64,000 bases of DNA from a bacterium (GCA_963669175.1 OY769902.1:4384001-4448000); one strand, 5' to 3'; shown: positions 25,975 through 48,343, numbered from the stretch's first letter. The notes: generated from the sequence alone by a model not told the origin. Translations and numbers: made by a program.

Positions 25975-26354
25975 GGCTGCAAAATTCCCACACCTTCATA
26001 CACGAAAAATCCAAAACCAACCATGATATTCTCCTCATAGCATTCTCATTCTTCTCAATAACTTTTTAATAAACAATGTTTCATGAATATCATTTCATAG
26101 TGCAATCGAATCGAAAACCAGAATTCTTGAATTCCTCCAAGCTCAATAAAAGTCAAAAAACGCTCTTTGGTTCTTTGGCGTTTTGAAATGAAGGTTTTGA
26201 CTCCGGGAGTCCTTTTCATGTGCTTGAGAATTCTCTTGAGGGCTAAGAAAAAAGCAATAGGACCGGTTATTCACCAGTCCCATGCTTGAGGGAGGGGTTA
26301 TCATCTCACGCTGCCGCGTGGTAAAATGATCTATTCACGAGAAAGCTGTCTTCT

Positions 26355-27380
26355 TCAATTTCCTTCCGCCTGATCCAGCTTATCATTACCGTTGCCATTA
26401 CCACCGCCGTTGCCATTACCACCGCCGTTGCCATTACCACCGCCATTGCCATTACCACCGCCATTGCCATTACCACCGCCATTACGTACTTCCTGACCTT
26501 CGTTGAATGCCTCATACATATCTTTCCGGGCCAGTAGATCCTGCCTTGAATACTGATCAGCATACATCAGCATGTACTCGCCTTCTAACAGGAACCACAT
26601 GGTCAGAATCGGGTCATCGTTAAGAAAACGTCCGTGCATATAATTCAATTCCGCAGCAAGAAGGTGACGCGCCAGGTTCTCAGTCGCATTATTGCCATTC
26701 TGCTCGAGGATAATCAGTGCGATTTCCATGTTGATTCCATGGAAAGGCTGCAATCCGAAGTTTGAGACACAATGGAGATAGTTCTGCAAAATCTCAGGTT
26801 CTATCTGCGCCCCGTTTTGACGCCCCTCCAATGCGAAGGTAATGTTGTGACGCCAGAAGCCCAGCCCATGACCTTCCTCATTATTTGGGCAATAGCCATC
26901 AATGGAGAGTCGAAGACCAATTTCCAACATTGTGTTGGCAGTAAGTTCAATGGAGAATTCATTTCCACCGTCAACCTCCATCCCTTGTATTGGAATGATT
27001 TCAACCCAGTATTCTGCCGGCGGAAGTTCTGAAATGAAAAAATACCCATTGGCATCAGTGTAAACTGCATGATGACTGTTCAAATAAATGTCAACATGTT
27101 CAAGCCTGATTTCACCATTATCCAATTCGCCATTATTGTTAATGTCGAAGTATGTAATTCCCGACAGCGAGAAAAGCTCATCATCTACGGGAATAACTTT
27201 GTCGGTTTCTACTTCATCAGCCTCTTGCATGGCGTTTGCATCCAGAAGTGTATTGGCAGATTCTTCAATTCCTGCCTCGTCAATATCCTCTGGACCTGAC
27301 ACTGGGTTACCCAGGTCACAGCCAACCGCAACAAACAGGATCATCAATCCCATCAGGGCAAGTGTTCTATAGCGTTTCAT
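26355..27380 (-). CDS. Lipoprotein with SdrD-B-like domain and Gly/Asn C-terminal tail
   Basis: Start moved to ATG 27380 (GGAGG RBS); lipobox AVG-C; 'SGITYFDINNNGELDNGE...TDANGYF...LPPAEY' resembles an SdrD-B repeat with an EF-hand-like loop; 'GLGFWRHN' motif. Confidence 0.8.
   Translation of the reverse strand: MKRYRTLALMGLMILFVAVGCDLGNPVSGPEDIDEAGIEESANTLLDANAMQEADEVETDKVIPVDDELFSLSGITYFDINNNGELDNGEIRLEHVDIYLNSHHAVYTDANGYFFISELPPAEYWVEIIPIQGMEVDGGNEFSIELTANTMLEIGLRLSIDGYCPNNEEGHGLGFWRHNITFALEGRQNGAQIEPEILQNYLHCVSNFGLQPFHGINMEIALIILEQNGNNATENLARHLLAAELNYMHGRFLNDDPILTMWFLLEGEYMLMYADQYSRQDLLARKDMYEAFNEGQEVRNGGGNGNGGGNGNGGGNGNGGGNGNGGGNGNGNDKLDQAEGN
26391..26480 (-). repeat. 5 x 18-bp tandem repeat encoding (GGGNGN)5
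   Basis: Plus-strand unit (G/A)TTGCCATTACCACCGCC, five near-identical copies. Confidence 0.95.
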
Positions 27381-27605
27381 GATGACCTCCTTCTTCCGAT
27401 AAACCGGAAATCGCTTCTCTTGAAAAAAAGATAACTCACCCAAAGGGAAAATGCAAGAAAAGAACACTCCAAATTGCTGTTTTTTAAAGATTTAGCATAT
27501 ACACCCTTTTATGTATTTTTCGTGTTTCGAAAACCTGGTTTTATCGTATTATTTTCTTAACACTTAAATCCGGATTGTTACAAATATTTGCCATTTTTGC
27601 TAAAG

Positions 27606-27640
27606 AAACCCCAAAAATCCTCGTAGCATTTTTGGGGTTT
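27606..27640. repeat. Perfect 13-bp inverted repeat in a divergent promoter region
   Basis: AAACCCCAAAAAT (27606-27618) and ATTTTTGGGGTTT (27628-27640), 9-nt spacer. Confidence 0.7.
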
Positions 27641-27864
27641 TCGTTTCGAATATTACATCTCCTCCTGGAGGCAATCATAAAAAAAAAGACGCAAAACAGG
27701 ATTCTTCATTGATTTTTTTATACTTATAGACGTACACACTCTCGTTGTCCATGCTCCTCTCAACCCCAAAAACGCGATAATCGCTATCCGAAATCCCGGT
27801 TGGCGTCTTACATTTTCATCAGTTATTGTTCCGCAAACTTTCGATCTGGTTCCAGGAGAAACCC

Positions 27865-28854
27865 ATGCAGTACGTAAGGATGGCCGCGATCTTTCTTGTT
27901 CTTTTCGCAGCAGTAGCTTTCGCGGATTATTCCCAGGAGTGGCAGGTTCAACAGAACTTCTACGATTACGGGATTCTGTATTTTGACTACAATCATGATG
28001 GCAGTGCGGAATTGACCAAGATGTGGGGGAACACTGTTACCGCCTATGACGGCTCATCGAATTATTCAGTTTTATGGTATCTCGAGCAGACGGATTATGA
28101 TGAGCTGTGTATATGGGACATCTACGATGATCTCATTGAAGGCCAGGAAATCGCCCTCTTTTTTGCAGATAACGTAGTTGATGAAACATCTACAAGGTTT
28201 TTCGCCTTTGAGGTTCTTGGCGACACCCCGGTATGGAGTTCCAATCTCTTTGATGGCTATTACAGCTACATCAGCGTAAAAGATATTGATGCGGATGGCG
28301 CAAAGGAAATCGTATTTGGATTGAACATTTACAATGCCGATGATGAGGACTATACTTCTCATTTTTACGTTCTGAATGGCCAGACAGGCGCCCTGGAGTA
28401 TACCAGTCCGGAATTCGCCGGATATATGCGCGGTCCGTTCCTTAATGACATGGATGATGATGGTGTTATCGAGATACTTCTCAACATTTACAACAACACG
28501 GATCAGACATCAGAACTGATCGTGTATTCCGATGATTCTCAAGGTGTGATTCAGACGGAAGATTTCCTCCCCAGGGACATCACTTTGCATTCCAATTTCC
28601 CGAACCCTTTTAATCCCGGCACCACGATTCCCATCACTTTGCAGTTGCGGGCTGAAGTGCGTATCGCTGTCTATGATATCCTCGGGCGTGAAATAACGGT
28701 ACTCATGGATGGCACACTTGGCGCCGGAACCCACCAGTTCTACTGGAATGGCAGGAATGATGCAGGTATTCCACTGGCATCAGGCGCTTACTTCTATGAG
28801 GTAAAAATCAATGGTCAACATCTTCTCAGAAAAGCCATGGTCCTGCTTAAATGA
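27865..28854 (+). CDS. Exported FG-GAP/VCBS-like protein with T9SS-type/FlgD-Ig C-terminal sorting domain
   Basis: AGGAG RBS before ATG 27865; signal peptide ending AFA; DxDxDG loops (DYNHDG, DIDADGAKEI, DMDDDGVIEI); C-terminus NFPNPFNP...YDILGREI...WNGRNDAG...SGAYFY. Confidence 0.85.
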   Translation: MQYVRMAAIFLVLFAAVAFADYSQEWQVQQNFYDYGILYFDYNHDGSAELTKMWGNTVTAYDGSSNYSVLWYLEQTDYDELCIWDIYDDLIEGQEIALFFADNVVDETSTRFFAFEVLGDTPVWSSNLFDGYYSYISVKDIDADGAKEIVFGLNIYNADDEDYTSHFYVLNGQTGALEYTSPEFAGYMRGPFLNDMDDDGVIEILLNIYNNTDQTSELIVYSDDSQGVIQTEDFLPRDITLHSNFPNPFNPGTTIPITLQLRAEVRIAVYDILGREITVLMDGTLGAGTHQFYWNGRNDAGIPLASGAYFYEVKINGQHLLRKAMVLLK

Positions 28855-29648
28855 GACTGATTGAACTGCTGGCAGCTCTATCGATTTATCCCTGGAACCT
28901 GGGTGCAGGTGGCTACTATACGTACGGCACATTCCGTGATGACCTTGTCTATCATGGCCAGTCCGCTATTGTAACCCTGGACAGGAAGAACAAGGATCTG
29001 CTTGAGTTCAAGTTCGAGGATTTCACCATTGACGGTGATGGACGCTCCTTTGAACAGACGAATTATATCGCACGTGCCGCCTGGTGGGCTGATAAACGAT
29101 GCCGTCCAGGCGCGTTTCTTTGGATTCCGCATACTGACTTCAAGTCGGATGAGTATTACCTGGGCGGCACGTTGGAGGGTGATTTCTCATTCGGCGGTTA
29201 CAGGCTGGCCATGACGCACAAGCACGGTCAGGATTTCGGGACTTTCGGGCCGGTTCAACGGTTTGATGCGAAACAATATGACGTATCACTTCACAAGTGG
29301 TTTGGTCCGCATCGTTTCCAGGTCGGTGTAACTCACGTGAGTCTCAACGAGGAGAATTATTACCTCCTTCGGTTGGCAACCTTGAGTCTGTTATCGAATC
29401 AAACAGTAGTGTTCCTGGAATACTCGACCGGGGAAAGCCGGTATTACGTTGAACCGTTTGACCTGGCTGTTCATGACAGCGAGGAGATACTAAAAGCGCA
29501 GTACGTAGCTGGTTTCACTTACAGGTTCTTTACCAACTTGTCCGGGTATGCCAGCTACATTCGAGTGGACATGGAATCCGCTTTCCCGGGTTTCATGTGG
29601 CCGGAAACCAAGCAGTACTACACAGTGGGCTTGCAGGTCAGGATTTAG
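28851..29648 (+). CDS. Putative outer-membrane beta-barrel protein
   Basis: ATGA overlap with the upstream gene; aromatic-rich alternating strands; ends YYTVGLQVRI. The signal peptide is unusually short or atypical. Confidence 0.65.
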   Translation: MRLIELLAALSIYPWNLGAGGYYTYGTFRDDLVYHGQSAIVTLDRKNKDLLEFKFEDFTIDGDGRSFEQTNYIARAAWWADKRCRPGAFLWIPHTDFKSDEYYLGGTLEGDFSFGGYRLAMTHKHGQDFGTFGPVQRFDAKQYDVSLHKWFGPHRFQVGVTHVSLNEENYYLLRLATLSLLSNQTVVFLEYSTGESRYYVEPFDLAVHDSEEILKAQYVAGFTYRFFTNLSGYASYIRVDMESAFPGFMWPETKQYYTVGLQVRI

Positions 29649-29676
29649 AAGCGTTGACAGGTTTACAGAGGTTTTC

Positions 29677-30117
29677 ATGAGGCGGTTTTTTGCTTGGATT
29701 ATCGCAGTTTTTGTACTGGTTGGCTTTGCTGCTGCCGAGCCGGCGAAACTGCACGTGGATATTGTTGTGGATGCCGATCACGGCTGGCCGACAAAGCTCG
29801 TGGTCAGTGGAAACGTACCCCAGAGCAAGGCATGGCTTGGTATTTCCCTTTACCCTTACGCAGTCATTGATCCGATAAATGATGGCGATCATACAATCAT
29901 TGAACTGCCAAAGGGTGAATTCAAACGTGAGATCCCGGTTCCCTCAGGATTTCTTGGTGGTAGCTTCGAATTCGGTCTTTGGGGGAAACGGGTGGACAAA
30001 ATCGACTGCACCATTGATAACTGTTACTGGTGTAAAAAGAACGGTTTCCATCTGGATAGCTCACTGGCTTACAAGAGCGGACTTTTAACACGTCTAACCG
30101 GTTACGGTACAGAGTAA
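29677..30117 (+). CDS. Small exported protein with CxxxxCxWC motif
   Basis: Start moved to ATG 29677 (GAGG upstream); signal MRRFFAWIIAVFVLVGFAAA; CTIDNCYWC near the C-terminus; 146 aa. Confidence 0.75.
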   Translation: MRRFFAWIIAVFVLVGFAAAEPAKLHVDIVVDADHGWPTKLVVSGNVPQSKAWLGISLYPYAVIDPINDGDHTIIELPKGEFKREIPVPSGFLGGSFEFGLWGKRVDKIDCTIDNCYWCKKNGFHLDSSLAYKSGLLTRLTGYGTE

Positions 30118-30134
30118 TCCGGAAGGAGTACAGC

Positions 30135-30380
30135 ATGGGCACTACATTTAAAAGTGAAGTCACCGTAAGCAAGAGTGGCTTTGTTTTTGACCACTCTTCC
30201 GGGTTGACCTTTTCCCTGAACGAAACCGGTCATTTCATTTTCAAGGAACTTGAAGCCGGAAGCGAGCCCAGTGAGATCTTGAGCGGACTTATGGAAGAGT
30301 TTGCCGTGGATGATACAACAGCACGGAAAGACCTGGATGATTTCCTGCGTCAGCTCAAGGATCTTGGCTTTGTAGAATAA
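30135..30380 (+). CDS. Stand-alone PqqD-family / RiPP recognition element (RRE) protein
   Basis: 81 aa; AGGAG RBS; 'GFVFD..SG.TFSLNETG..I...L..G....EI...L.EEF.V....ARKDL..FL..L...G' is the PqqD-family pattern. Confidence 0.88.
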   Translation: MGTTFKSEVTVSKSGFVFDHSSGLTFSLNETGHFIFKELEAGSEPSEILSGLMEEFAVDDTTARKDLDDFLRQLKDLGFVE

Positions 30381-30501
30381 ACGGACCTTGTTGTCTAAAA
30401 ACGTAACTCCGCTTATTTCCTGTCGTTCCTTTAGAAGAACCCTGGAAAGAACGGTGAAACCTTTGCTGTATCGATAGTGGTTCGGTCCACTGGGAGTAAC
30501 C

Positions 30502-31575
30502 ATGAGTATAAATGTTGCGATCACCGGTCTTCACGCGACCGATAATCCTGCCCCGGGGATTGGTGTCATTCGTTCCCTGCGTCACCCGGACGGATGGGAT
30601 GGCGACATCATCGGCCTTGGCTATGACGTCTATGATACCGGGATTTATGACGTTGATCTTCTCGACCATACGTTCCTGATTCCTTATCCCAACCAGGGCG
30701 CGGATCACCTGTTCAGCCGCCTGATGTATGTCCATGAGCAGGTTCATATTGATGTGATCATTCCAACCCTGGACAGCGAATTGTCAGTTTTCCAAGTACT
30801 TGAGCCACGTCTGAATGAGGCCGGAATTCGCCTCTTCATTCCGAGTAAAGAAGTCACCGAAAAGCGTTCCAAGGCGAAACTGGTGGAATTCTGCGAGGAG
30901 AATGACATCAGCACACCGAAAACCATAGTCATCCGTGATCCAGCCAAGTTCGGCGACGCCCTGGATGATCTTGGCTTTCCTCTCTACGTCAAAGGTGTTT
31001 TTTACGATGCTTACAAGTGCAACACCAGGAGCGAAGCACTCAAGGCCTTTGAAAAGATGCGCCAGCAATGGGGGCTTCCGGTGCTGCTCCAGGAATCTCT
31101 CAACGGTGAAGAATTTGATGTCTGCGCTGTAAGCGATCAGGAAGGCGATCTGATTGGCGCAGTACCGATACGCAAGTTGCGCTTGACCGAAAAGGGCAAG
31201 GCCTGGGCGGCGGTTACCATTCGTAACAACGAATTGCTGGAAATGAGTCGTAAAATCTTGAAACGGCTGAAATGGTCCGGGCCCTGTGAGCTGGAAATCA
31301 TGCAGGAAAGCAGGACAAAGAAACTGTACCTGATTGAGATTAACCCACGTTTCCCGGCCTGGATATTTCTCGGAACCGGCGCCGAGCAGAATTTACCAAG
31401 AGTTGTTGTTGATCTTGCGCTGGGTAAAAAGGTTGAGCCGATGTCACCTGCCACCAGCGGGATCTCATTTGTACGTCATGCTACGGACCTGGTCTGCCCG
31501 CTCGAGTACCTCGAGAACCTGACCATGTACGGTGAACTTCACAACAAAGAGTACCGGGAGAGCAATCATGGCTAA
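30502..31575 (+). CDS. ATP-grasp ligase (CarB-like single-domain family)
   Basis: 357 aa; 'IDVIIPTLDSEL', 'GFPLYVKG', 'LLQESLNGEEF', 'LYLIEINPRF' ATP-grasp motifs. Confidence 0.9.
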   Translation: MSINVAITGLHATDNPAPGIGVIRSLRHPDGWDGDIIGLGYDVYDTGIYDVDLLDHTFLIPYPNQGADHLFSRLMYVHEQVHIDVIIPTLDSELSVFQVLEPRLNEAGIRLFIPSKEVTEKRSKAKLVEFCEENDISTPKTIVIRDPAKFGDALDDLGFPLYVKGVFYDAYKCNTRSEALKAFEKMRQQWGLPVLLQESLNGEEFDVCAVSDQEGDLIGAVPIRKLRLTEKGKAWAAVTIRNNELLEMSRKILKRLKWSGPCELEIMQESRTKKLYLIEINPRFPAWIFLGTGAEQNLPRVVVDLALGKKVEPMSPATSGISFVRHATDLVCPLEYLENLTMYGELHNKEYRESNHG

Positions 31576-32914
31576 GAAACCCTATGTGAAGCCGACCATT
31601 GTTCGTCATTCAGTTGGTGTTCAGAATAAATTCGGACGTCCGCCGTCAGCCGTGCCACGTGAATCCCTGGAAGGCTTCTCCGTGCGTGACCTTGCCAACA
31701 AGTACGGCTCACCTTTGTTCGTACTGTCGGTCAAGCAACTGCGAGACAAGTATCGTGACCTGGACCGGGCATTCCGCACACGTTACCCCAAGTTCCAGAT
31801 CGCCTATTCCTACAAAACGAACTACATGAAGTCCGTATGCTCTATCCTTCACCAGGAAGGGGCCTGGGCGGAGGTAGTATCCGGTTTCGAATATGATATC
31901 GCCGCTAACCTTGGTGTTCCAGGCGAACAGACAATCTTCAACGGACCCTATAAAACACGTGATGAGTTGAAGCGTGCTTTCGAAGCAGGGTCCATTGTCA
32001 ACATTGACAATTACGACGAGATGCTTGTTGTTGAGGACATCGCGGACGAGATGGGCAGAATTCTGGATGTCGGCATCCGAATTAATATGGATCTTAATGA
32101 TCCGCCCTGGCACAAGTTCGGTTTTAACGTGGAAAGCGGGCAGGCTTACCAGGCGGTGAAGCGTGCCATGAGCAGTGGAAAGCTGAATGTGGTCGGCCTG
32201 CATATTCACACCGGCACTTATGTTGATGACACCAGTGTCTACTCGCGCGCTGCTCGCGGTATGGTGAATTTCTACACCATCATCCGTGAACAAATGGGTG
32301 TCAAGCTGAAGTACTGGGACATGGGCGGAGGATATGCCTCGAAGAATACCCTGAACTGGGCGTATCTGCCCGGCGAACAGACCTGCCCGACCTTTGACCA
32401 GTACGCTGAAGCAGTATGCCCTATCCTGATGAGTGGTCCCTTCCCGGCTGATGAGCTGCCGCGTCTTTTCATAGAACCGGGCCGTGCTCTTGTCGATGAG
32501 CCTTTCAGTGTGGTCACTTCTGTCGCCGCTCAGAAAAGATTGCCGAACGGACGTCGTGGCGTTCTTCTCGATGTGGGCATGAATATGCTGTCATCGGTGC
32601 AGTGGTATCGTTACGCCATGCAACCCGCACAGGACAGCGGAACCATGCTGGAAGACTCGGTGATTTATGGCGGCCTGTGCATGAACATTGACGTGCTCAA
32701 TCCCAGCGCTTCTCTGCCTCCGGTCAGGCGCGGGGATCTGCTGGTGATTCCGCATGTGGGTGCGTATAACCTGAGCCAGAGCTGGCAGTTCATTTTTCTG
32801 CGCCCGTCTGTTATTGCGATTGAAAACGGCGAAATTCATGTGATCAAACGTGCGGAAACACGAGAATATGTGCAGGAGTTCGAGGAACTTCCGGATGGAT
32901 TTGCATTGAAGTAA
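31568..32914 (+). CDS. PLP-dependent fold-III decarboxylase (LysA/diaminopimelate decarboxylase-like) with an N-terminal extension
   Basis: ATG 31568 overlaps the ATP-grasp gene end, GGGAG RBS; YGSPLFV, YSYKTN (PLP Lys), FNGPYK, KFG, HIHTG, DMGGG, IEPGR, LCMNID, GAY. Confidence 0.9.
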   Translation: MAKKPYVKPTIVRHSVGVQNKFGRPPSAVPRESLEGFSVRDLANKYGSPLFVLSVKQLRDKYRDLDRAFRTRYPKFQIAYSYKTNYMKSVCSILHQEGAWAEVVSGFEYDIAANLGVPGEQTIFNGPYKTRDELKRAFEAGSIVNIDNYDEMLVVEDIADEMGRILDVGIRINMDLNDPPWHKFGFNVESGQAYQAVKRAMSSGKLNVVGLHIHTGTYVDDTSVYSRAARGMVNFYTIIREQMGVKLKYWDMGGGYASKNTLNWAYLPGEQTCPTFDQYAEAVCPILMSGPFPADELPRLFIEPGRALVDEPFSVVTSVAAQKRLPNGRRGVLLDVGMNMLSSVQWYRYAMQPAQDSGTMLEDSVIYGGLCMNIDVLNPSASLPPVRRGDLLVIPHVGAYNLSQSWQFIFLRPSVIAIENGEIHVIKRAETREYVQEFEELPDGFALK

Positions 32915-33004
32915 TCGCGGGAAGGCGTGCAAACCCAGGGTAAAGATCAGACTATTTCACCCATTCGATCCTGAAGGGATCACACAACATAAATAGATAA
33001 AAAC

Positions 33005-35119
33005 ATGGAAGCAGCAAAACCACAACTGCAAGACAACCTCAGGCACTGGCATATTATCAAGCCTTACCTGCTCGGGTATGGTGTGGTCATTTTTGCTGCG
33101 CATCCGGCGCCGTCTTTCCTGGTCCTGCTTGCGACCTTTTACCATCCGATGGTAGGTGTCATGGGGCTGGCCGGAAACATTCTCGCCAATATCACCGCTC
33201 GCTGGATGGGTGCGAATGAAGAGATCCAGGCCAGTGGAATTTATGGCGTCAACGGACTTCTCGTTGGGCTCGCGCTGGGAATGCACGGCGAACCTTCGCT
33301 CAAAATGCTGCTGTTCCTGCTGGTAGGCTCCGTTGTTGCTGGAATTGTATCCGTGTTCCTCGGTAATAAATTTCTCAAGAATGACCTGCCGATCCTGTCA
33401 CTCCCTTTCATGATGCTGATCTGGCCTTTGTTGATCCTTGTCGGAATCACCAGCCAGGACCGTAGCGCGTTTGCCATTATTCCTGTCCTTCGCAGTTCGG
33501 ATCAGTGGCTGTATAATAATGTCAGCATTGAGGTTTTCCAGTACATCAAGATGTTCGGAAACATCCTGTTCCAGGAAAACCTGATTTCGGGTGTATTGGT
33601 CTATATCGCGCTGGCTCTGTATTCGCGGGTATCCCTGGCATATGCCATGCTCGGCGGTGTTCTGGGTATTCTCACTCACCTGCTACTCTATGGCACCTTA
33701 TCCAATTTCAACGGGCTTAATTATATCCTCATAGCTCTGGCATTCGGCGGGTTCTTTATCATTTCCAACCGTCATGGTTTCCTGTATGCGGTCATTGCCA
33801 TTTTCAGTGTGGGGCTGCTGGATTACGCCATTGTGAAATTTCTCAAAATGACCATCAATCCACGACTTGAAGTATTGCCGACCCTTGTATGGTCTTTTAA
33901 TATCGTTACGCTGGTTTTCCTGTATCCTCTGAAGAAGATCGCCCTGGCTCGTGCGGACCTGAACTTGATTCCTGTCCCGTTAAGTGTTGTGAAAAGTCCT
34001 GAAGCAAACCAGAACTGGCTGAAACGCTGGCAATCCCAACGATTCCGTCAGAAGACGGTATTGTCGCTCCCCTTTACCGGAAGTTGGACTGTTTTGCAGG
34101 GCAACGACGGCGAATGGACGCACAAGGACAAGGGACGCTACGCCTGGGACTTTGTTGTTACGGATTCAAGCGGCAGCCAGCACAGCGGTTACGGACTTTC
34201 ACTGACAGATTTTCATGCGTTTGGGCTGCCTGTTTTCGCCCCGGCCAGTGGGACAGTTGTTGCTGTTGAAAACGCCATCCTGGACAATCCACCACGGACA
34301 GCCAATACGGAGAACAACTGGGGCAACTATATCGTCCTTGATCATGGCAACGGTGAATACACCGAATTAAGCCATTTCAAGCAGGGAAGTATTGTTATTT
34401 ACCTGGGACAGGTGGTGAATCGTGGGCAATTACTCGGTTACTGCGGCAACTCGGGCCGTAGCGCCGTTCCCCATATTCACATGCAACTGCAGGAAGGCCC
34501 GAAACCTGGCGATAAATCCATCCCGGCACGTATCGCTGAAGCTACAATCAACGGTTCCCTGAAAGTGAATTGCATCCCTCAAAAGGATGACACACTTTCG
34601 CCTCCGGAAATCGATACGGAGCATGAATGGACACTCCTGGGCAAAGAAGGTGAAAGCTGGATTGCAGATGTCAAGCTGGGGATGGTCTCTTTCCGAGAAA
34701 CCCTGACATTCGGTTCCGATTACTTCGGAGCGCCTGCCATGCTGGGAAAAAACCATTTCCTCTGGACGATACAGGACCGTCCCAACTTCTTCGAGATCAT
34801 CCCGGATTACAAAACCTTCCCTACACTACTCGCGCCTTCCGGCTGGATGAAAATTGTTGGCGAATCCCTTGTACTGCCCAAGAAGTTGAAGGTGGGCTTG
34901 AAATGGGAAGTCGCCCAGTTTGACAGCAAGGGCCGGAAGAAAATGATCCAGGGGCATGTGATAAGCCGTTCATCCAACCTTTGGCTGATAGAGGTGAACA
35001 ACCTGCAGATTACAATAGATGAAACCCTTGAGCGAATTATACGGGTGATGGTGGAAGGTGACGAGCATTTTCGGTTCGTTGTGCGTGAACCGCAAAAGGA
35101 TGACGTTTTCTACGTTTAG
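33005..35119 (+). CDS. Urea-transporter (UT) family membrane domain fused to an M23 peptidase-like domain
   Basis: First ~310 aa multi-TM with UT motifs GIYGVNGLLVG and LPILSLPF; then WTH...YAWDF, PVFAPASGTVV, WGNYIVLDH, GQLLGYCGNSGRS..PHIH (M23). Confidence 0.87.
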   Translation: MEAAKPQLQDNLRHWHIIKPYLLGYGVVIFAAHPAPSFLVLLATFYHPMVGVMGLAGNILANITARWMGANEEIQASGIYGVNGLLVGLALGMHGEPSLKMLLFLLVGSVVAGIVSVFLGNKFLKNDLPILSLPFMMLIWPLLILVGITSQDRSAFAIIPVLRSSDQWLYNNVSIEVFQYIKMFGNILFQENLISGVLVYIALALYSRVSLAYAMLGGVLGILTHLLLYGTLSNFNGLNYILIALAFGGFFIISNRHGFLYAVIAIFSVGLLDYAIVKFLKMTINPRLEVLPTLVWSFNIVTLVFLYPLKKIALARADLNLIPVPLSVVKSPEANQNWLKRWQSQRFRQKTVLSLPFTGSWTVLQGNDGEWTHKDKGRYAWDFVVTDSSGSQHSGYGLSLTDFHAFGLPVFAPASGTVVAVENAILDNPPRTANTENNWGNYIVLDHGNGEYTELSHFKQGSIVIYLGQVVNRGQLLGYCGNSGRSAVPHIHMQLQEGPKPGDKSIPARIAEATINGSLKVNCIPQKDDTLSPPEIDTEHEWTLLGKEGESWIADVKLGMVSFRETLTFGSDYFGAPAMLGKNHFLWTIQDRPNFFEIIPDYKTFPTLLAPSGWMKIVGESLVLPKKLKVGLKWEVAQFDSKGRKKMIQGHVISRSSNLWLIEVNNLQITIDETLERIIRVMVEGDEHFRFVVREPQKDDVFYV

Positions 35120-37020
35120 TCCCCTCTTTTCTTATTCCGGACATTTCTGTCTTTAATCGTATCCCAGGGATTTTTTGCCTTGGTCCGTGATTGCCCTTTC
35201 CCGCGATTTGACCTGCTTTTCGCTTCTGATTTTTCCTGCCTTTCCGGCTTTGTCGTCACCATGTCTTTCTGCTTCCGTTTGCGCCCCCCATCCTTCTCGA
35301 CAAACAACTTCTCCCCGGTAAACGGGTCCATCTCAGTCCAATACATTACGGCAGACCATGTGGATGGCAAGGGGGTAAAGATCTGTACCTGCTCCGGTGT
35401 AATCTTCAATCTTCGTTGGGTATATTCTCGAAGCTGTTCCATATCACGGTCTGTGCATCCCGGATGCGCGGCGATCAGGTAATAGGTCATGAAGACACGG
35501 TTGCCAGCCTTTTCCCGGGATTGCTCAAAGCGCTCGGTAAATTCATCCAGTTCACGTCTTCCCGGCTTTCCCATCGTCTCCAGCACATGATCCTGCGTAT
35601 GCTCCGGGGCGATTTTCAACTGACCGGAAACATGATGCTGTACCAACTCATCCAGGTACGCCTGTCCCTGCTTCTCATCAGCCAGAACCAGGTCATAACG
35701 CAGTCCAGAGGTCATGAAAACTTTCTTCACCTTCGGCAGAGAACGAAGCTTCTCCAGCAATTCTCGCTGTGGTCTGTGATTCACTCGAAGCGCCTTGCAG
35801 ATACCGGGCGTCATACAGCGTTTGATTTCGCAGACCCCTTTTTTCTGCCAGCGCAGGCAATCGAAACCGTACATATTCCCGGTCGGCGACCCGCCATCGT
35901 ACAGGATGCCCTTGAACTTGGGATGATCACTCAGCTTTTCCGCTTCTCGCAGAATGGAAGCCTCTGAACGGCTCTGCACCTGGCGTCCCTGGTGAACCGC
36001 TATCGCACAGAAGTTGCACTCGCCGTAACACCCTCTGTGAGTTGCAAGGGAGAAGCGGATGGTTTCCAGCGCACGAATCTCACCATGCTGCTGATAATAC
36101 GGATGCGCATCACGTTCGAAATCCAGCTCGTAGTAGCTGTCCAGTTCATCACGTGTGGGCGGGAACGCCGGAGGATGCTGTACCAGCCAACGATCCCCGT
36201 GTTGTTGTGCTAACGGCTTCGCGGTAAGCGCATCATTGTTGTGGTAAAATGTGCGGAACATCTCAGTAAATGCAACCTTGTCCCTGGCGACATCTTCATA
36301 GGAAGCAAGAACGATAGCATCATCAGGCGCATCCTGTGCGATACGGCAGATTCCACGGATTCTCTCAAGTTTGATCTGCTCACTTTCCCGGGTGCCAGCA
36401 CCCGGGCCACTCAACTGAAGCGAGCTGTCAGGCGCTTCTATTGCAGGAGAATCTGATGCGTTGGCAAGGTGCTGTTCGAAGTATTTCGCCAGTTCCAGCA
36501 CGGTCTTCTCACCCATACCATAGGCCAGGAAATCAGCTTTGGCGTCGAACAGAAGTGAGCGCCGGATATCATTGGACCAGTAATCGTAATGAGCGATACG
36601 TCTCAGGCTGGCTTCCAGTCCGCCAAGCACGATGGGAACGGTGTTCTTGTAGTGTCTTCGTATCAGACCGGTGTAAACGATGGATGCCCGGTTGGGCCTT
36701 CGGTCATTTACTCCCCCCGGCGTGTAGTCATCATCACGGCGTTTCTTTTTCAGCGCGGTGGTGTTGGCAACCATCGAATCCACACTGCCCGCGCTTACTC
36801 CCCAGAACAGCCGTGGCTCGCCTAAACGTGTGATATCGTCATTTTCCAGACCCGGTTGTCCGATAATACCAACACGATACCCGGCACGGTGCAGCACCTT
36901 GCCAATCAGTGCAATGCCGATAAGCGGCGAATCGATATAGGCATCCCCGGTGACCAGCACCACATCAAGCTGATCCCAGCCAAGGGCTTGCATTTCATCA
37001 CGTGTTGCAGGCAGAAACAT
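35116..37020 (-). CDS. ygiQ: YgiQ family radical SAM protein (UPF0313)
   Basis: MFLPATRDEM..LGWDQLDVVLVTGDAYIDSP start; RGCYGECNFC (CxxxCxxC); LKIAPEH; QVQIFTPLP. Confidence 0.92.
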   Translation of the reverse strand: MFLPATRDEMQALGWDQLDVVLVTGDAYIDSPLIGIALIGKVLHRAGYRVGIIGQPGLENDDITRLGEPRLFWGVSAGSVDSMVANTTALKKKRRDDDYTPGGVNDRRPNRASIVYTGLIRRHYKNTVPIVLGGLEASLRRIAHYDYWSNDIRRSLLFDAKADFLAYGMGEKTVLELAKYFEQHLANASDSPAIEAPDSSLQLSGPGAGTRESEQIKLERIRGICRIAQDAPDDAIVLASYEDVARDKVAFTEMFRTFYHNNDALTAKPLAQQHGDRWLVQHPPAFPPTRDELDSYYELDFERDAHPYYQQHGEIRALETIRFSLATHRGCYGECNFCAIAVHQGRQVQSRSEASILREAEKLSDHPKFKGILYDGGSPTGNMYGFDCLRWQKKGVCEIKRCMTPGICKALRVNHRPQRELLEKLRSLPKVKKVFMTSGLRYDLVLADEKQGQAYLDELVQHHVSGQLKIAPEHTQDHVLETMGKPGRRELDEFTERFEQSREKAGNRVFMTYYLIAAHPGCTDRDMEQLREYTQRRLKITPEQVQIFTPLPSTWSAVMYWTEMDPFTGEKLFVEKDGGRKRKQKDMVTTKPERQEKSEAKSRSNRGKGQSRTKAKNPWDTIKDRNVRNKKRGD

Positions 37021-37021
37021 C

Positions 37022-38503
37022 TTACTCCCGTATCGTCCGTTGTATCCGTGCAACATACATCAAGACACCGAAGTTTACTAGCAGTCCCCATACCCCGGAA
37101 TGCACTCCCAGCGGCTTTGCCGGAAGCAGACCGAATCCCATTTCCAGTATGGTCAGGATCAGGGTAACAATAACACCAGCCAGCATTCCCCAATACACCG
37201 GTTTTGCCTTGATCTGCGGATACAACACCCCCACCAGCAGCGCGGGAGCTGCCTGAACGAAAAACACCAGCTTCAGCTCAATCAATCGCCAGACAGTTTG
37301 CGGTAGTATCATCGCCAGCCAGATCATCAGCGCCATGATAATCCAACTGAAGCCTTTTCCCAGGTAAGTCAGTCGTTTCCAGTCGGTCCCCGGCTTCAGG
37401 GGCAGGTAGATATCCATGGTGAAGATGGAAGACAGGGAAAGCAGCGCCGAATCAACTGTGGACATGATCGCCGCCAGGGATGCGGCCAGGAACAGGATCA
37501 TCAGCCCACCAACCCAGGCATTCCCGGCGCCCAGGTCATTCAGAAATATCATCAGGATCTGTTCGCTTTCCCCTTTGCTCAATCCCGGAAACTGAACCGC
37601 TCCGACAATCCCGATTGTGACGATGAGCAGAGTCGTCACCAAAGGCATGAAAGCCATGAATTGCAGAGATCGTTTTAACGATCCTGCGCTTTTAGCCGCG
37701 AAAACACGTTGTACCATATGCGGATAAGTCGATACACCGAAGAAGAAGATCACAATGGTACTGAACCACGTCATCTTCCCGGTCCAGGAAGGCGCCTGCC
37801 ATATCTCCGGGCGTTCGGTCATGGCACGCTTCGCAACTTCGGTCATGGGACCATATTTCACCATCACGATGACAAACAGAAGCAGACATCCAACCATCAG
37901 GATCACGCCCTGGATCAGGTCAGTCCAGGCCACGCTTCTCATCCCGCCGAGCGTCTCATAAATCACCATAATCAGGGCAAGAATAACCACTCCCCATGCG
38001 AAAGGAATCACACCGCCCGTAGTCGCTTCAACAATATGTCCGATGGCTTTCAGGTTAGACAGGATGTAATTCGCCAACGCCCAGATGCCAAGGATGGAAA
38101 AGGCTATGGTAAGCGGACGATATCCGAAGCGATGCTGAATGAAATCGCCTGGTGTGATGAAGTTGTGCTTTGCGGCAAGTCGTTGAAGTTTTGGTGCAAA
38201 CAGCGCCAATGCCCCAACCACGGCAATCATGAAGGTTGCGCCGACGAGGAAGGCATATCCCTGGCGATAGGCGCGTCCGGCAAAACCGACCAGAGTGTTG
38301 CCGCTGTATTGGCTCGCGTACAGGGTGAAAAACAGGACGAGAAAACCGAGGGAACGTCCTCCCAGGTAGTAATCAGGTGGCGATACTTCTTTCCGGGCAA
38401 AACGTCCCCAGATCCCAACACCAATCAAGGTCAACATATAGAGGCCGACAGCGACAATCCCGCCTGTACCAAGAATCGCACCCGCTCCACCGGTTTCAGG
38501 CAT
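37022..38503 (-). CDS. Sodium:solute symporter family protein (PanF/PutP-like)
   Basis: DYYLGGRSLG, GGMRSVAWTDLIQG, AAIMSTVDS; about 13 hydrophobic segments. Confidence 0.92.
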   Translation of the reverse strand: MPETGGAGAILGTGGIVAVGLYMLTLIGVGIWGRFARKEVSPPDYYLGGRSLGFLVLFFTLYASQYSGNTLVGFAGRAYRQGYAFLVGATFMIAVVGALALFAPKLQRLAAKHNFITPGDFIQHRFGYRPLTIAFSILGIWALANYILSNLKAIGHIVEATTGGVIPFAWGVVILALIMVIYETLGGMRSVAWTDLIQGVILMVGCLLLFVIVMVKYGPMTEVAKRAMTERPEIWQAPSWTGKMTWFSTIVIFFFGVSTYPHMVQRVFAAKSAGSLKRSLQFMAFMPLVTTLLIVTIGIVGAVQFPGLSKGESEQILMIFLNDLGAGNAWVGGLMILFLAASLAAIMSTVDSALLSLSSIFTMDIYLPLKPGTDWKRLTYLGKGFSWIIMALMIWLAMILPQTVWRLIELKLVFFVQAAPALLVGVLYPQIKAKPVYWGMLAGVIVTLILTILEMGFGLLPAKPLGVHSGVWGLLVNFGVLMYVARIQRTIRE

Positions 38504-39528: not shown

Positions 39529-40203
39529 GTGAAAAGAACATACACAGCAATATTCTGCCTCGGTATTGTCTTCTCGCTAATATCCGGATGCGCCACCTTC
39601 CGTTCCGGGGTGAAAGGACATTTCTCTGAACCAGGAAGTAAAAACCTTGGGGCTGAAAAGGTAGATGTGCTGTTCATTTTCAGCCACTACGAGCAGGCGC
39701 GTGGGTATGACGCTATCCCGAAACTGGAAAGCCACCACCAGATCATCCGTGATTTTGACGATCTCTTTATAGATGCCTGCGGTGAATTATCCAACCTGGA
39801 CAAGTATACGACTTTCACCGAATACGCATCCGATGTAAGCGAGCCGGAACGCATCACCAAGCGAGACAGCCTGATTGCAGCTTACGATTATGTCATACGA
39901 ATCAAATTCATGAAGGAACACTCCTTCGCACAGCATTTCCTGGGAACCCTGTTTTCAACAGTGTCCGCCACACTCCTGCCCATGCCCTACTCACAACACT
40001 TCTCCATGGAAGTGAATGTGTTTGATGATCAGGATATCCTTCTGCACAGTTATAAACGGGAAGCCTCGATGACAAAATGGGTGCAGACACTGCTGGTTTT
40101 CGTCTACCCTTTCCATACTGAAAAACGGAAGGAAGAAGAAATCTACATCAACCTGATGCACGACGTCTTCAGGCAGATTGAAACGGAAAGAGTGCTGAAA
40201 TAG
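39529..40203 (+). CDS. Hypothetical lipoprotein
   Basis: GGGAGG RBS before GTG 39529; lipobox ISG-C. Confidence 0.75.
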   Translation: MKRTYTAIFCLGIVFSLISGCATFRSGVKGHFSEPGSKNLGAEKVDVLFIFSHYEQARGYDAIPKLESHHQIIRDFDDLFIDACGELSNLDKYTTFTEYASDVSEPERITKRDSLIAAYDYVIRIKFMKEHSFAQHFLGTLFSTVSATLLPMPYSQHFSMEVNVFDDQDILLHSYKREASMTKWVQTLLVFVYPFHTEKRKEEEIYINLMHDVFRQIETERVLK

Positions 40204-40295
40204 GGTATTTATCTCCCTGCACATTTTGAACTTGAACCAAACTACAACAGCAATTACACCGGCGACACCACTTCATTTCGGAATTTCACCCATTG

Positions 40296-41381
40296 TTATG
40301 AAATAATGATTTTCACAATCTGGTCTATCTCTTCCGTAGTCAGATCGTAATACAACGGTAGACAGAGTATTCTTTCAGCAATCGATTCAGCAATCGGTAA
40401 AGCGCTATCCATAAAACCGCGAACACGATTCAACGATGGATAGAAATACCGTCTTGGGAAAATCTTCTTTGCCCCCAGCTTCCTGACTGCATCCAACAGT
40501 CTTTCCTCGGAATCGAACAATACGGGCATATAACTGTAGTTATAGGACTCTTCTTCAAATCTCTGGAAATCTATGAAAGGTGAAGCAGCCAACTGTTTCT
40601 GATAGTAGGCATATTTCCTTTTCCTGTCCGCCCGAACCTCATCGAGATATTTCAGGTTGACCAGGCCCAGCGCGGCATGAATCTCTGTCATTTTCGCGTT
40701 GGTGCCTTCATCAACAATGTCCTTGCTGTCATCGAAACCGAAAAAGCGCAACCGTTTTATTCTATCCACGATCTCATCATCACGGCAAACACATCCTCCG
40801 CCTTCCCCGGTATTATACAACTTGGTAGCATGAAAACTGAGGCAACTGACATCGCCGTATTCCACCAGGGGACGTCCCTTGTATTCCACTGCGGTTGCAT
40901 GGGCAGAGTCATAAATCAACTTGAGGTTGTGTCGATCAGCAATATCCTGTAAAGCCTCCACATCACACGGAGCACTGAATACATGAACAGGCAGAATCGC
41001 TGCAGTTCGGTCAGTAATAGCATCTTCGACCTTTTCCGGATCGATATTCCATGTGTGCGGATCAATATCAACAAATACCGGTTTTATCCTGTTCCAATCA
41101 ATAATATTGGCCGTAGCGATGAATGAGAATGGCGACGTAATGATTTCGCCCTGAAGATCGTATGCACGTATGGCGAGATCCAGTGCAGCCGTACCATTCA
41201 CTACACACACCATGTTTCTGACCTTGAGATAGGCCATCAACTCACGCTCAAGCCTTTGTAATAACGGACCGTTATGCGTAAGAATACCGGATTCCCACAT
41301 TTGTTCCAGGTATTCATCAAATTCAGGAATCGGACCCAAAGAAGGTCTCGTCACAAAAATGGGGTTGTTACCTTGACTCAT
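40296..41381 (-). CDS. DegT/DnrJ family sugar aminotransferase, VioA-like (C4)
   Basis: IFVTRPSL...LTHNGP, YDSAHA, SFHATKLYNTGEGG, GTNAKMTE, RRYFYP. Confidence 0.9.
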   Translation of the reverse strand: MSQGNNPIFVTRPSLGPIPEFDEYLEQMWESGILTHNGPLLQRLERELMAYLKVRNMVCVVNGTAALDLAIRAYDLQGEIITSPFSFIATANIIDWNRIKPVFVDIDPHTWNIDPEKVEDAITDRTAAILPVHVFSAPCDVEALQDIADRHNLKLIYDSAHATAVEYKGRPLVEYGDVSCLSFHATKLYNTGEGGGCVCRDDEIVDRIKRLRFFGFDDSKDIVDEGTNAKMTEIHAALGLVNLKYLDEVRADRKRKYAYYQKQLAASPFIDFQRFEEESYNYSYMPVLFDSEERLLDAVRKLGAKKIFPRRYFYPSLNRVRGFMDSALPIAESIAERILCLPLYYDLTTEEIDQIVKIIIS

Positions 41382-41407
41382 CTGTTCCTCTGTTCCGAAA
41401 ACTGTGT

Positions 41408-42376
41408 TCAGGCAATCGTACCGGCCAACTCACGAAACTGCCACTGGATAGATGCTTGCGCCAGGATTTTCTCGTATTCCCCCGGCCAGCATGATACATT
41501 CTCAATACTATCACGGAAATGACAGACCATATTGTGGTAATGATTGTCCGGTGGAAGCTTGATGATATTCTTATCGTTCTGGTGTTCGATTATCATTGTT
41601 GGCATGAACCCTGGTGGTGCGGTAAAAATACGATCCGTAGTCAGTTTGCCTTTTGTGCCTAATATCTCCAGTGTACATTGGTAAAAATAGTTGAATCCAA
41701 ATGAAACCTGAGCTACTTGTTCCCTGTCGTTGACCAGCATACCATCGCCATACATATCAACACCACGATCCTGATCATACTCCAGCAGTGCAGAAACAAG
41801 CTTTGTATTGGGGCCAAGCAACAGGTTGCTGATTTTCAAGACATAACCACCTGCGTCCAGAAGCGCCCCACCGCCCAACTCCATATTGTAGCGAAAATTA
41901 TCTGCATTTAAGGGGGGGAAACCGAATGTTGAACGAATCAACCTTACATCACCCAATTCTCCTGAAGCCAGGTAATCCGTAACCCATTTAAACTGAGAAT
42001 GGTGTGGGAAAAGATAATTCTCCACCAGGAGAACACCTTTCTCCCTGGCAGCATTCACAAGCCGTTGCGCAGTTTCGAAGTCTCCAGCAAGTGACTTTTC
42101 TATCAGGAGATGCTTTCCCGCCTCGATAGCATGATTAATCCACTCTTCATGCAGCCCGGTCGGAAGCGGCATATAGACGGCATCAATATCTGGCCGCTTC
42201 AGCAGCTCGTCATATCCCTCGACGGCTTCACAGGCAAACTGCTCTGCGTATGATTTGGCTTTTTCAAGGCTTCTGGAAGCAACAGCGGTTACTTTCACAT
42301 CTTGCGTCTGCATCAGCGCCGGAATCATGGCCCTTTTTGCAAAAGAAGAGCATCCAACCACACCAACTCGCAACAT
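41408..42376 (-). CDS. Gfo/Idh/MocA oxidoreductase, probable NDP-hexose 3-ketoreductase
   Basis: GVVGCSSFA, AGKHLLIEKS, LGGGALLDAGGY; adjacent to the 2,3-dehydratase. Confidence 0.82.
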   Translation of the reverse strand: MLRVGVVGCSSFAKRAMIPALMQTQDVKVTAVASRSLEKAKSYAEQFACEAVEGYDELLKRPDIDAVYMPLPTGLHEEWINHAIEAGKHLLIEKSLAGDFETAQRLVNAAREKGVLLVENYLFPHHSQFKWVTDYLASGELGDVRLIRSTFGFPPLNADNFRYNMELGGGALLDAGGYVLKISNLLLGPNTKLVSALLEYDQDRGVDMYGDGMLVNDREQVAQVSFGFNYFYQCTLEILGTKGKLTTDRIFTAPPGFMPTMIIEHQNDKNIIKLPPDNHYHNMVCHFRDSIENVSCWPGEYEKILAQASIQWQFRELAGTIA

Positions 42377-42403
42377 TACACTATCTCCAGCTATCTACAT
42401 AGT

Positions 42404-43897: not shown

Positions 43898-43977
43898 AGA
43901 TTTCTTCCTCGTTACTTTGTAACCTTGCAGCAGACTTTGAAAAACAGCATCAATTGGAATCGTACTCCTGCCCCAAC

Positions 43978-44631
43978 TTACTGGCCACGCTTGATTGGTT
44001 TGGCAGGCACACCCACTACCGTCAGGCCGGAATCAATATTGTGAACAACAGCAGCGCCGGCCCCGACTACGCAATCGTTACCTATGGTAATATGGTCACG
44101 TACAGCAGCCCCAATACCAATCCAGCTTCTGGCGCCAATTGTGCAAGATCCCCCGACCCTGGCGCCCGGCGCTATATGACAGGCTTCACCTGCAACACAA
44201 TCATGGTCAACACTTGCACTTGTATTAATAATACAGTAGTCGGAAATCACCGTATCACTATTCACAATAGCCCCGGGCATCACGAGAACGCCAGAACCAA
44301 GCTTCGCAGTGGGTGATATTTGCGTAAATGGATGAATCAATGAGGGAATGTGAAATCCTTTTCTGGTCAGGTTTGCAGCTATCGTCTGCCGGGCCTGATT
44401 GGTCCCAATGGCAATAAATACATCATGCGTATTGCTGGAATAACTAAATAACTCCTGCTCCCCACCCAGAATCTCAATACCGTAAAGAGCGCTGCCCCAA
44501 CGATCTTGATTAACAGTGTCTATCAGGCCAATAATCTCATGCGATTGGTTTTGTTGAACAACATCAATGACCACCTTTGCATGCCCACCGGCCCCGACAA
44601 TCAGAAGTTTCCTTTTCACCATGAAAATCAC
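43978..44631 (-). CDS. PglD/NeuD-like sugar acetyltransferase
   Basis: GAGGHAKVV; hexapeptide repeats; INTSASVDHDC; GVPAK. Confidence 0.9.
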   Translation of the reverse strand: MIFMVKRKLLIVGAGGHAKVVIDVVQQNQSHEIIGLIDTVNQDRWGSALYGIEILGGEQELFSYSSNTHDVFIAIGTNQARQTIAANLTRKGFHIPSLIHPFTQISPTAKLGSGVLVMPGAIVNSDTVISDYCIINTSASVDHDCVAGEACHIAPGARVGGSCTIGARSWIGIGAAVRDHITIGNDCVVGAGAAVVHNIDSGLTVVGVPAKPIKRGQ

Positions 44632-44667
44632 CGTTTGGGGTTGAATGAATCTCAGTAATTTAAATAC

Positions 44668-48341: not shown

Positions 48342-48343
48342 TA

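Follow-up and report, generated by a model that had tools for sequence, protein, structure and literature searches.

Genes of the cassette

A stretch of 64,000 nucleotides (nt) of bacterial DNA (GCA_963669175.1 OY769902.1:4384001-4448000), called the window below and numbered from its first letter, was analysed together with the genome to which it belongs, a single contig of 5.45 Mb. On the + strand of the window, four consecutive genes encode a PqqD-like protein, an ATP-grasp ligase, a pyridoxal-phosphate (PLP) decarboxylase and a fusion of a urea-transporter-type (UT) channel with an M23 metallopeptidase (UT-M23). The four genes form a cassette that is conserved among genomes, with those of the ligase, the decarboxylase and UT-M23 present or absent together, and is not an orphan. 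The first-pass annotation of the window had spoken of an orphan module of four genes, which has to be revised, as the conserved unit also has barrel-like, tetratricopeptide-repeat (TPR) and type IX secretion system (T9SS)-sorted envelope partners. The four open reading frames (ORFs) lie exactly where that annotation had placed them, and their Pfam families exceed the gathering scores:

30135..30380, + strand: PqqD-like protein with the fold of peptide chaperones of the RiPP recognition element (RRE) type, RiPP standing for ribosomally synthesised and post-translationally modified peptide; 81 amino acids (aa) (Pfam PF05402)
30502..31575, + strand: stand-alone ATP-grasp ligase of the carbamoyl-phosphate-synthase (CPS)-like group, 357 aa (Pfam ATPgrasp_Ter, AlphaFold2 model)
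31568..32914, + strand: fold-III (alanine-racemase-fold) PLP decarboxylase, LysA/FslC-like, 448 aa (Pfam, NCBIfam, alignments)
33005..35119, + strand: UT-M23 fusion, 704 aa (Pfam, AlphaFold2, Foldseek)

The ORF of the decarboxylase opens at GTG 31532 (460 aa), and its homologues begin at a Met matching 31568; since the latter is the true start by the homologues, the gene overlaps the end of the ligase gene (stop 31575) by 8 nt, as had been annotated.

Conservation and co-inheritance

The search with the UT-M23 protein returned 304 relatives, both domains being present in nearly all of the 120 listed, among which the named hosts are the Marinimicrobia/Fidelibacterota, the Fibrobacterota-Chlorobiota-Bacteroidota (FCB) group and the Bacteroidota. 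At least 560 relatives were confirmed in contigs representing one genome per species, and the locus counts given throughout refer to the best 79 of them, with the neighbours identified by tblastn. The decarboxylase gene is located directly upstream of the UT-M23 gene in 72/79 loci, accompanied by the ligase gene in 63/79, and the shortfall concerns mostly contig ends; recurring in 72 of the related loci, the arrangement is far from chance. Four of the seven loci lacking both enzymes have less than 1.2 kb of upstream sequence, and the other three (L033, L074 and L083) extend for 9 kb upstream without the enzymes, with the ligase encoded elsewhere in the genome in each of the three. By iterative search, the PqqD-like gene was found directly upstream of the ligase gene in 59 loci. 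Where at least 3 kb of upstream sequence was available, the PqqD-like, ligase and decarboxylase genes stand beside UT-M23 in 55 of 58 loci (51 by ORF clustering and four with the decarboxylase seen by tblastn), and the co-occurrence of the four genes, for which the first-pass annotation had suggested a neighbourhood analysis, is thereby confirmed.

The same linkage is seen in the distribution of the genes among genomes. Of 31 sampled genomes that belong to the phylum of the window, 12 have the ligase, the same 12 a decarboxylase of 220-238 bits, and 13 UT-M23, the decarboxylase of the thirteenth genome being cut by a contig end. Among 151 Bacteroidota genomes, drawn evenly from the phylum of an Algoriphagus carrier, 12 carry the ligase, and precisely these 12 also have UT-M23, encoded on the contigs of the ligase (intact in 10 genomes, split in another and truncated in the last).

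Three Bacteroidota genomes without the cassette (G066, G108 and G120) encode stand-alone proteins of about 350-400 aa that match only the M23 part (UT-M23 profile positions ~335-527, E 1e-42 to 1e-50). Single in-frame stops inside the ligase or UT-M23 matches were noticed among G011, G025, G032, G051, G048, G100 and G124, the UT-M23 of G051 being split into two frames; such stops may mark copies in decay, or may stem from errors of sequencing or from overhanging matches.

The decarboxylase

The decarboxylase matches the Pfam families Orn_Arg_deC_N (127 bits, E 1e-36) and Orn_DAP_Arg_deC (35.1 bits, E 1.6e-8), both above the gathering scores, and remains below the cut-offs of the NCBIfam models for LysA (TIGR01048, 221.2 bits against 297.9) and for FslC (NF041039, 193.2 bits against 500). 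Sequence comparison with the Protein Data Bank (PDB) gave 167.7 bits for the LysA of M. jannaschii, 165.8 for FslC/FigC (7kh2) and 85-86 for BtrK. Judged by its sequence, the enzyme of the cassette is not a canonical LysA. The loop of the window protein reads G-G-L-C-M-N-I-D, of which L-C-M-N-I-D is invariant in 67/67 cassette decarboxylases; in the alignment, its C-M-N-I-D stands opposite C-E-S-S-D or C-E-T-G-D of LysA and C-M-Q-H-D of FigC. The Arg of the LysA motif M-N-D-x-x-R-P-x-x-Y is replaced by Ser in the window decarboxylase and by Thr in FslC/FigC. It is this Arg and the Glu of the loop that we take to hold the distal end of diaminopimelate (DAP) in LysA. All 67 sequences likewise agree in the Schiff-base Lys that binds PLP, in the Gly loop (G-G-G) and at the E-x-G-R positions. 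Such invariance suggests that the enzyme is active and has a single fixed substrate other than DAP, which is likely to be a conjugated amino acid, because Cys-Met is found as in FslC/FigC, without the Glu and Arg of LysA. According to the accessible text of PMC7857480, M355 of FigC stacks on the aliphatic part of docked N-citrylputrescine, and the members of the clade other than diaminopimelate and D-ornithine decarboxylases likely serve specialised metabolites such as siderophores.

The decarboxylase might alternatively be the divergent LysA of this organism, with the neighbouring genes unrelated to it. No LysA-like gene other than that of the cassette was found in the 5.45-Mb genome, where dapA (298 bits) and dapF (221 bits) are both over their cut-offs and no LysX over the cut-off was detected. 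However, a lysA that passes the TIGR01048 cut-off is absent from all 31 genomes of the phylum sample, of which 17 lack any LysA-like match, so that the cassette gene is not the LysA of the phylum. Canonical lysA (336-393 bits) is also encoded, besides the cassette, in four of five cassette genomes of other phyla, and the decarboxylase gene is present or absent together with those of the ligase and UT-M23. With the score that falls short of TIGR01048 and with Met and Ser in place of the Glu and Arg of the LysA substrate site, the explanation by a divergent LysA is scarcely credible. The first-pass annotation had correctly taken the L-C-M-N-I-D loop as not LysA-type and the decarboxylase as non-canonical; the separate lysA that it had advised to look for is lacking in this genome, which touches on its refuting condition, and it is the sample of the phylum that speaks against a lysine-synthetic role. 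For the lineage, this leaves lysine auxotrophy or a final biosynthetic step by a non-homologous enzyme.

An N-terminal extension of about 20 aa (31568-31640 in the window) precedes the start of the alignment with the LysA of M. jannaschii and is conserved in all cassette decarboxylases, with the pattern M-x-K-x-x-Y/F-E-R/K-P-x-I-x-K/R ... G-x-x-N-K-F-G. It could represent a docking tail, for example for the PqqD-like protein.

The UT-M23 fusion

Three parts were distinguished in the UT-M23 protein (residue numbers):

~20-313: UT-fold channel
~356-505: M23 metallopeptidase
~510-700: beta-rich C-terminal domain

The Pfam families UT (157.2 bits against a cut-off of 25, E 6.7e-46) and Peptidase_M23 (54.5 bits against 28.7, E 1.4e-14) match the same chain, the AlphaFold2 model of which has a pLDDT of 92.5 and a pTM of 0.87. 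Foldseek aligned the model with the urea channel dvUT of Desulfovibrio (3k3g, E 1.6e-16, TM-score 0.82-0.83) and with the M23 enzymes DipM, ShyA and lysostaphin (E ~1e-6 to 1e-5). The C-terminal domain (510-704) had no fold match in the full-length Foldseek search, which was dominated by UT and M23 matches, and its best ESM Atlas scores (0.80 and 0.77) are too low to count as a lead. In the peptidase part, the catalytic His and the H-x-H of solved M23 peptidases have H457, H490 and H492 as their counterparts in the alignment; these three residues, together with H373 and D382, do not vary among 60 sequences.

The last helix of the UT part (296-313) is not followed by another hydrophobic one, the linker 309-355 contains nine Lys/Arg, and the termini of UT-B are intracellular as given in the available text of PMC12998343, because of which the M23 and C-terminal domains are probably cytoplasmic. 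This location, unusual for M23, argues against a role on mature peptidoglycan.

The pore differs from that of dvUT in that F80, the residue mutated in PDB 3m6e, corresponds to Val82 and its Phe counterpart in the second repeat to Leu238, the Thr of the two L-P-x-L-T-x-P-F motifs being replaced by Ser132 and Val295. In dvUT, the F80 and Thr positions presumably line the selectivity filter. The strong UT fold and Pfam match would be in line with an ordinary urea channel for nitrogen uptake, to which M23 is a regulatory or anchoring appendage. The genome has this one UT gene, and a urease alpha subunit was not found in it (best match 21 bits against a cut-off of 680); moreover, the changed pore positions, the strict linkage to three enzymes and the invariance of the catalytic His of M23 all disagree with mere urea uptake, which is thus a most improbable function.

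Envelope partners and neighbouring genes

By clustering all ORFs in the 79 loci and the window, the conserved unit was found to be larger than four genes and to extend in the window upstream to 27826. The further genes of the + strand unit, and the gene converging on it, are as follows:

27826..28854, + strand: FG-GAP/FlgD-Ig/T9SS-sorted secreted protein, 342 aa, the first gene of the unit (Pfam, NCBIfam)
28851..29648, + strand: barrel-like protein of no known family, 265 aa (composition, C-terminus, profile-profile match)
29677..30117, + strand: secreted protein, 146 aa (signal-peptide-like N-terminal segment, homologue starts)
35116..37056, - strand: YgiQ-family radical SAM gene (TIGR03904, 756.8 bits), converging on UT-M23

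The protein of 342 aa matches Pfam FlgD_ig (35.9 bits, cut-off 27) and the T9SS sorting model TIGR04183 Por_Secre_tail (28.4 bits, cut-off 23), and its T9SS/FG-GAP family adjoins the cassette in 11 related loci besides the window. The 265-aa protein has no Pfam or NCBIfam match; its family accompanies the cassette in Marinimicrobia and Ignavibacteria (11 loci) and resembles, by profile-profile comparison (probability 90%, E 1.6e-6), the C-terminal half of the TPR proteins of ~445-450 aa of Bacteroidota. The aromatic-terminal C-terminal strands common to this family and its TPR-barrel relatives suggest a likeness to outer-membrane barrels. The 146-aa protein, likewise without Pfam match, belongs to a family encoded directly upstream of PqqD in eight loci (seven of Marinimicrobia and one of Calditrichaeota); its listed ORF starts from 29548, and the start of the homologues corresponds to the Met at 29677.

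The set of partners depends on the lineage. Thus, in Marinimicrobia, including the window, the barrel-like, the 146-aa secreted and the T9SS FG-GAP genes are upstream of the cassette; in Bacteroidota, UT-M23 is followed by proteins of ~445 aa and ~207 aa, both with TPR and signal-peptide-like N-termini; and in Ignavibacteria, a TPR protein of 211 aa is followed by one of ~270 aa from the 265-aa family of the window. Where the downstream sequence reaches 2.2 kb or more, a TPR gene occurs 3' of UT-M23 in 52 of 63 loci, and signal-peptide-like N-termini are common to the TPR, barrel-like and secreted partners. Found less regularly are AraC regulators (upstream in 16 loci) and further proteins sorted by the T9SS (14 loci), as well as an aminotransferase, an M28 peptidase and membrane proteins of the DUF4405 family. 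In some loci of Bacteroidales (L042:6950-8896, L057:5619-8949, L052:7533-8348), genes of DUF4405, class I/II aminotransferase and T9SS-sorted PKD proteins are inserted between the decarboxylase and UT-M23, and an M28 peptidase gene comes after the TPR genes.

The gaps between the seven + strand genes amount to -4, 28, 17, 121, -8 and 90 nt, the stop of the T9SS-sorted gene overlapping the start of the barrel-like gene by 4 nt, and on this spacing a single operon is likely. The scan for promoters and terminators (11 against 9.2 and 2 against 8.5 in shuffled sequence) was uninformative, terminator-like sites being rarer in the region than in shuffles. No pqqA/B/C/E, lasso cyclase, urease or radical SAM gene is present within the + strand unit, just as the first-pass annotation had reported, the radical SAM gene of the YgiQ family lying convergently on the - strand. 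No lysine riboswitch or other element was detected in the Rfam scan of 26000-36000, and none of the seven proteins matched the defence-system models of PADLOC.

The YgiQ gene overlaps the stop of UT-M23 by 4 nt and is next to a sodium:solute symporter gene; neither of the two recurs next to the cassette in the other loci that were inspected. The spacer between the PqqD-like and ligase genes (30381-30501), of 121 nt in the window and mostly of a few bases in related loci, contains only a TTG-initiated ORF of 29 aa and has no Rfam match. The GC content is 0.43 at 26001-28000 and 0.39-0.47 at 40001-52000, against 0.52-0.56 in the first 24 kb, and the - strand gene 26355-27467 has weak SdrD_B and CarboxypepD_reg matches.

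The association with envelope proteins leads to another explanation, the editing of envelope or peptidoglycan peptides, in which M23 and the LysA-like enzyme would act on stem peptides containing meso-DAP or on precursors of these; DAP within a peptide might, for instance, be decarboxylated at its free D-centre and a residue re-attached by the ligase, the TPR/barrel proteins providing a tie to the wall or the outer membrane. M23 enzymes are typically peptidoglycan endopeptidases, the nearest solved matches being ShyA, DipM and Csd-type proteins, LysA acts on meso-DAP, and the ATP-grasp protein has a weak likeness to the pseudomurein model NF053643 (33 bits against a cut-off of 500). However, with M23 predicted in the cytoplasm, with a patchy occurrence (12/31 in the own phylum, 12/151 in Bacteroidota) unlike that of a core wall function, and with the LysA residues for the distal end of DAP replaced, such editing is very unlikely.

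The ligase, the PqqD-like protein and the search for a precursor

The PqqD-like protein scores 56.3 bits with PF05402 (cut-off 23.4, E 4.2e-15), and its residues G15, F18 and G23 are invariant. The ligase scores 45 bits with ATPgrasp_Ter (cut-off 29.1, E 1.1e-11), its PRK12767-type matches in NCBIfam being all far under the cut-offs, and 42 columns are invariant in 53 sequences. In its AlphaFold2 model (pLDDT 93.0), the closest fold match is 2pn1, an uncharacterised CPS-like protein (E 2.2e-22), followed by CPS, biotin carboxylases, PurK and the L-amino-acid ligase RizA. A graspetide-type ATP-grasp was considered and is not supported, no repeated-core precursor having been found, the best models being the CPS-like ATPgrasp_Ter/PRK12767 and the best fold 2pn1.

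Co-folding of the ligase with the PqqD-like protein gave a score of 0.35 against 0.00 for the best control, three runs agreeing in at least 95% of contacts, with a partner pLDDT of at least 81. The mark applied was reached by 116/157 solved complexes and by 2/215 mismatched pairs; passes at or below 0.60 comprise 18 of the solved complexes and both mismatches, and are more often wrong unless the pairing is likely beforehand. The modelling thus lends weak support to a complex of the two proteins. The idea that the PqqD-like protein is a carrier resembling LysW, in which a C-terminal Glu is fixed, was rejected: its C-termini vary (D, E, L, Q, K, G, N), because of which a fixed attachment residue of this kind is unlikely. 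Three other PqqD-type genes are located in the genome at G000:C1:2173355, 3419253 and 763990 (L003, L005, L006). One has a radical SAM enzyme and an S24/S26-like peptidase as neighbours, another forms the C-terminal end of a protein of 281 aa that adjoins a T9SS-sorted one, and another is placed next to an HPr-kinase-like protein and an NTP_transf_5 protein.

A precursor or scaffold peptide was sought by clustering ORFs of at least 30 aa from the 79 loci and the window, by listing ATG ORFs upstream of PqqD, and by clustering intergenic ORFs of 12-70 aa with blastp-short. The only recurrent families of small ORFs are antisense to PqqD or shared by the near-identical genomes L029/L043. The scaffolding by an RRE and a peptide, supposed in the first-pass annotation, is accordingly left without its peptide, no conserved precursor ORF having been found in 79 loci; a hypervariable or distant precursor is possible.

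Such a result is favourable to a pathway for a free small molecule, by the logic of siderophore synthesis independent of non-ribosomal peptide synthetases (NIS), in which no ribosomal peptide takes part and PqqD serves only as a structural adaptor. The ATP-grasp protein would then replace the synthetase joining citrate or another acid to an amino acid, the decarboxylase would trim the conjugate like FslC, SbnH and AcsE, and a chelator, polyamine conjugate or signal would leave via the UT channel, the pore of which suits a small solute, and the outer-membrane barrel. Besides the lack of a precursor ORF, the FslC-like Cys-Met loop, the AraC-type regulators upstream in 16 loci and an aminotransferase gene between the decarboxylase and UT-M23 in two loci fit this explanation, and the accessible part of the FigC paper (PMC7857480) predicts roles in specialised metabolism for the clade-2 enzymes. 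It is opposed by the conservation of PqqD, which is kept as strictly as the enzymes (59 loci), by the lack of an obvious role for an M23 peptidase, and by the absence of a TonB-dependent receptor or NIS synthetase from the subset of neighbours scanned with Pfam. To our knowledge, moreover, all characterised PqqD/RRE proteins bind peptides. On balance, the small-molecule pathway without a peptide appears rather unlikely.

Comparison with known systems

The formation of a conjugate by a ligase, followed by decarboxylation with a LysA-like fold-III enzyme, is also known from the rhizoferrin pathway of Francisella (FslA/FslC, or FigA/FigC) and from SbnE/SbnH and AcsD/AcsE. The cassette decarboxylase scores with FigC nearly as highly as with LysA and has Cys-Met in common with it. 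However, the cassette ligase is an ATP-grasp protein and not an NIS synthetase, none of which was met in the Pfam-scanned neighbours; the cassette adds PqqD, UT-M23 and the TPR/barrel partners, and a link to iron is not part of the present evidence. In butirosin biosynthesis (BtrI/BtrJ/BtrK), an ATP-grasp ligase likewise precedes a decarboxylase of fold III, the substrate of which is an amino acid in tethered form; BtrJ (ATP-grasp) and BtrK (LysA-like) reportedly ligate and then decarboxylate glutamate on a carrier protein. In contrast, no acyl carrier protein was found among the cassette neighbours scanned, the PqqD-like protein taking the carrier's expected place, and BtrK is the more distant relative by its score given above. 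The reaction of BtrK is described in the available part of PMC7857480.

A discrete PqqD-type protein beside a modifying enzyme also occurs in the RRE-dependent RiPP and scaffold pathways of PQQ, lasso peptides, pearlins and fosfazinomycin, of which the last, in the accessible text of the preprint PMC13622209, gives a precedent for small molecules built on a scaffold peptide and then cut off. Unlike these pathways, the cassette has neither a precursor gene that could be found nor enzymes of the radical SAM, cyclase, YcaO or PEARL type, and the candidate for its protease, an M23 domain, sits on a channel. The peptidase-containing ABC transporters of bacteriocin systems carry a cytoplasmic C39 cysteine peptidase on an ATP-driven exporter of the ATP-binding cassette (ABC) type and move whole peptides. 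They are alike, by analogy only, in joining a peptidase to an export device, which in the cassette consists of an M23 metallopeptidase and a passive channel of UT fold. With the urea channel dvUT, UT-M23 has in common the UT fold, whereas the pore positions differ and the genome has no urease alpha match.

No description of the cassette was found in a full-text literature search, the coverage of which leaves out most subscription journals, and the literature check proposed by the first-pass annotation has thus brought up no earlier account. A 2026 survey of UT evolution (PMC12998343) lists, in its available text, the bacterial architecture of UT with M23, without function or gene context; the accessible parts of an RRE survey (PMC12710340) and of a graspetide survey (PMC8939145) contain no mention of a decarboxylase, urea or M23. 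Pairs of a ligase with a fold-III decarboxylase and RRE-assisted pathways are of known kinds, of which the cassette would be a variant, and its putative release device is unprecedented.

The proposed pathway

From the gene content, the conservation, the domain folds, the intact catalytic motifs, the non-LysA specificity residues and the phyletic co-occurrence observed, we infer the chemical steps, which way transport runs, the topology and what PqqD does as follows. In the most likely of the explanations considered, the cassette would be an envelope-spanning module of FCB-group bacteria for biosynthesis and release, by which a compound is ligated, decarboxylated, cleaved and released; this proposal is tentative and has not quite an even chance of being right. 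The product would probably be an amine-bearing compound. In the cytoplasm, the ATP-grasp enzyme would form an amide between a carboxylate and the side chain of an amino acid, the alpha-amino-acid head being kept free, as in an N-omega-acylated diamino acid, and the PqqD-like protein would hold a peptide-like partner for the ligase. The FslC-like PLP decarboxylase would then remove the alpha-carboxylate to leave a terminal amine. The M23 domain, placed on the cytoplasmic end of the UT channel, would cut the finished piece free, and the channel, with its altered pore residues, would pass the small product out of the cytoplasm; the cleave-and-export step put forward in the first-pass annotation would fit this predicted topology of M23. 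In the periplasm and at the outer membrane, the product would be handled by the barrel-like and TPR proteins, joined in some lineages by T9SS-sorted ones.

Several points weigh against this proposal. The nearest folds of the ligase are either uncharacterised or bicarbonate-activating (CPS, biotin carboxylase, PurK) and support no particular acyl or amine substrate, and no conserved ORF of a precursor or scaffold peptide is present in or around the 79 loci. The first Zn-ligand motif of M23 is atypical, the canonical one being H-x-x-x-D: D382 lies nine residues beyond H373, their assignment is uncertain, and D402 aligns with the Asp of one solved M23 enzyme. The cytoplasmic topology is deduced from homology and charge bias. 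The UT pore, as known from urea-channel structures, is too narrow for a peptide, and a passive channel such as UT would need a small product and a gradient for export.

A more specific version of the release module would amount to a new class of peptide-guided small-molecule pathways, widespread in the FCB group, with an RRE that has no co-encoded precursor and directs the ATP-grasp enzyme and the FslC-like decarboxylase, an amine-capped unit built on a carrier, cleavage and release by a hitherto unknown device of a cytoplasmic M23 domain on a UT-fold pore with remodelled filter, and a dedicated outer-membrane route by the TPR/barrel proteins. The carrier might be a peptide encoded elsewhere or the tail of a pathway protein, for instance the N-terminal extension of the decarboxylase. 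A new class of this kind is unlikely as matters stand. The probability not taken up by the main proposal and its four rivals is left to explanations not yet considered.

Significance of the cassette

The cassette occurs in at least several hundred species-level genomes, its hosts being Bacteroidota, Ignavibacteriota, Calditrichota and Marinimicrobia, which are abundant in oceans, sediments and guts. Its parts have not been reported together: an RRE protein without a detectable precursor, a decarboxylase with residues like those of siderophore pathways, and a pore-altered UT fused to a probably cytoplasmic M23. Cultured carriers exist, such as an Algoriphagus isolate and Plebeiibacterium sediminum, so that direct testing is possible. 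If the cassette were solved, the UT-M23 architecture would gain a function, and a new class of metabolites or a new route of release might come to light.

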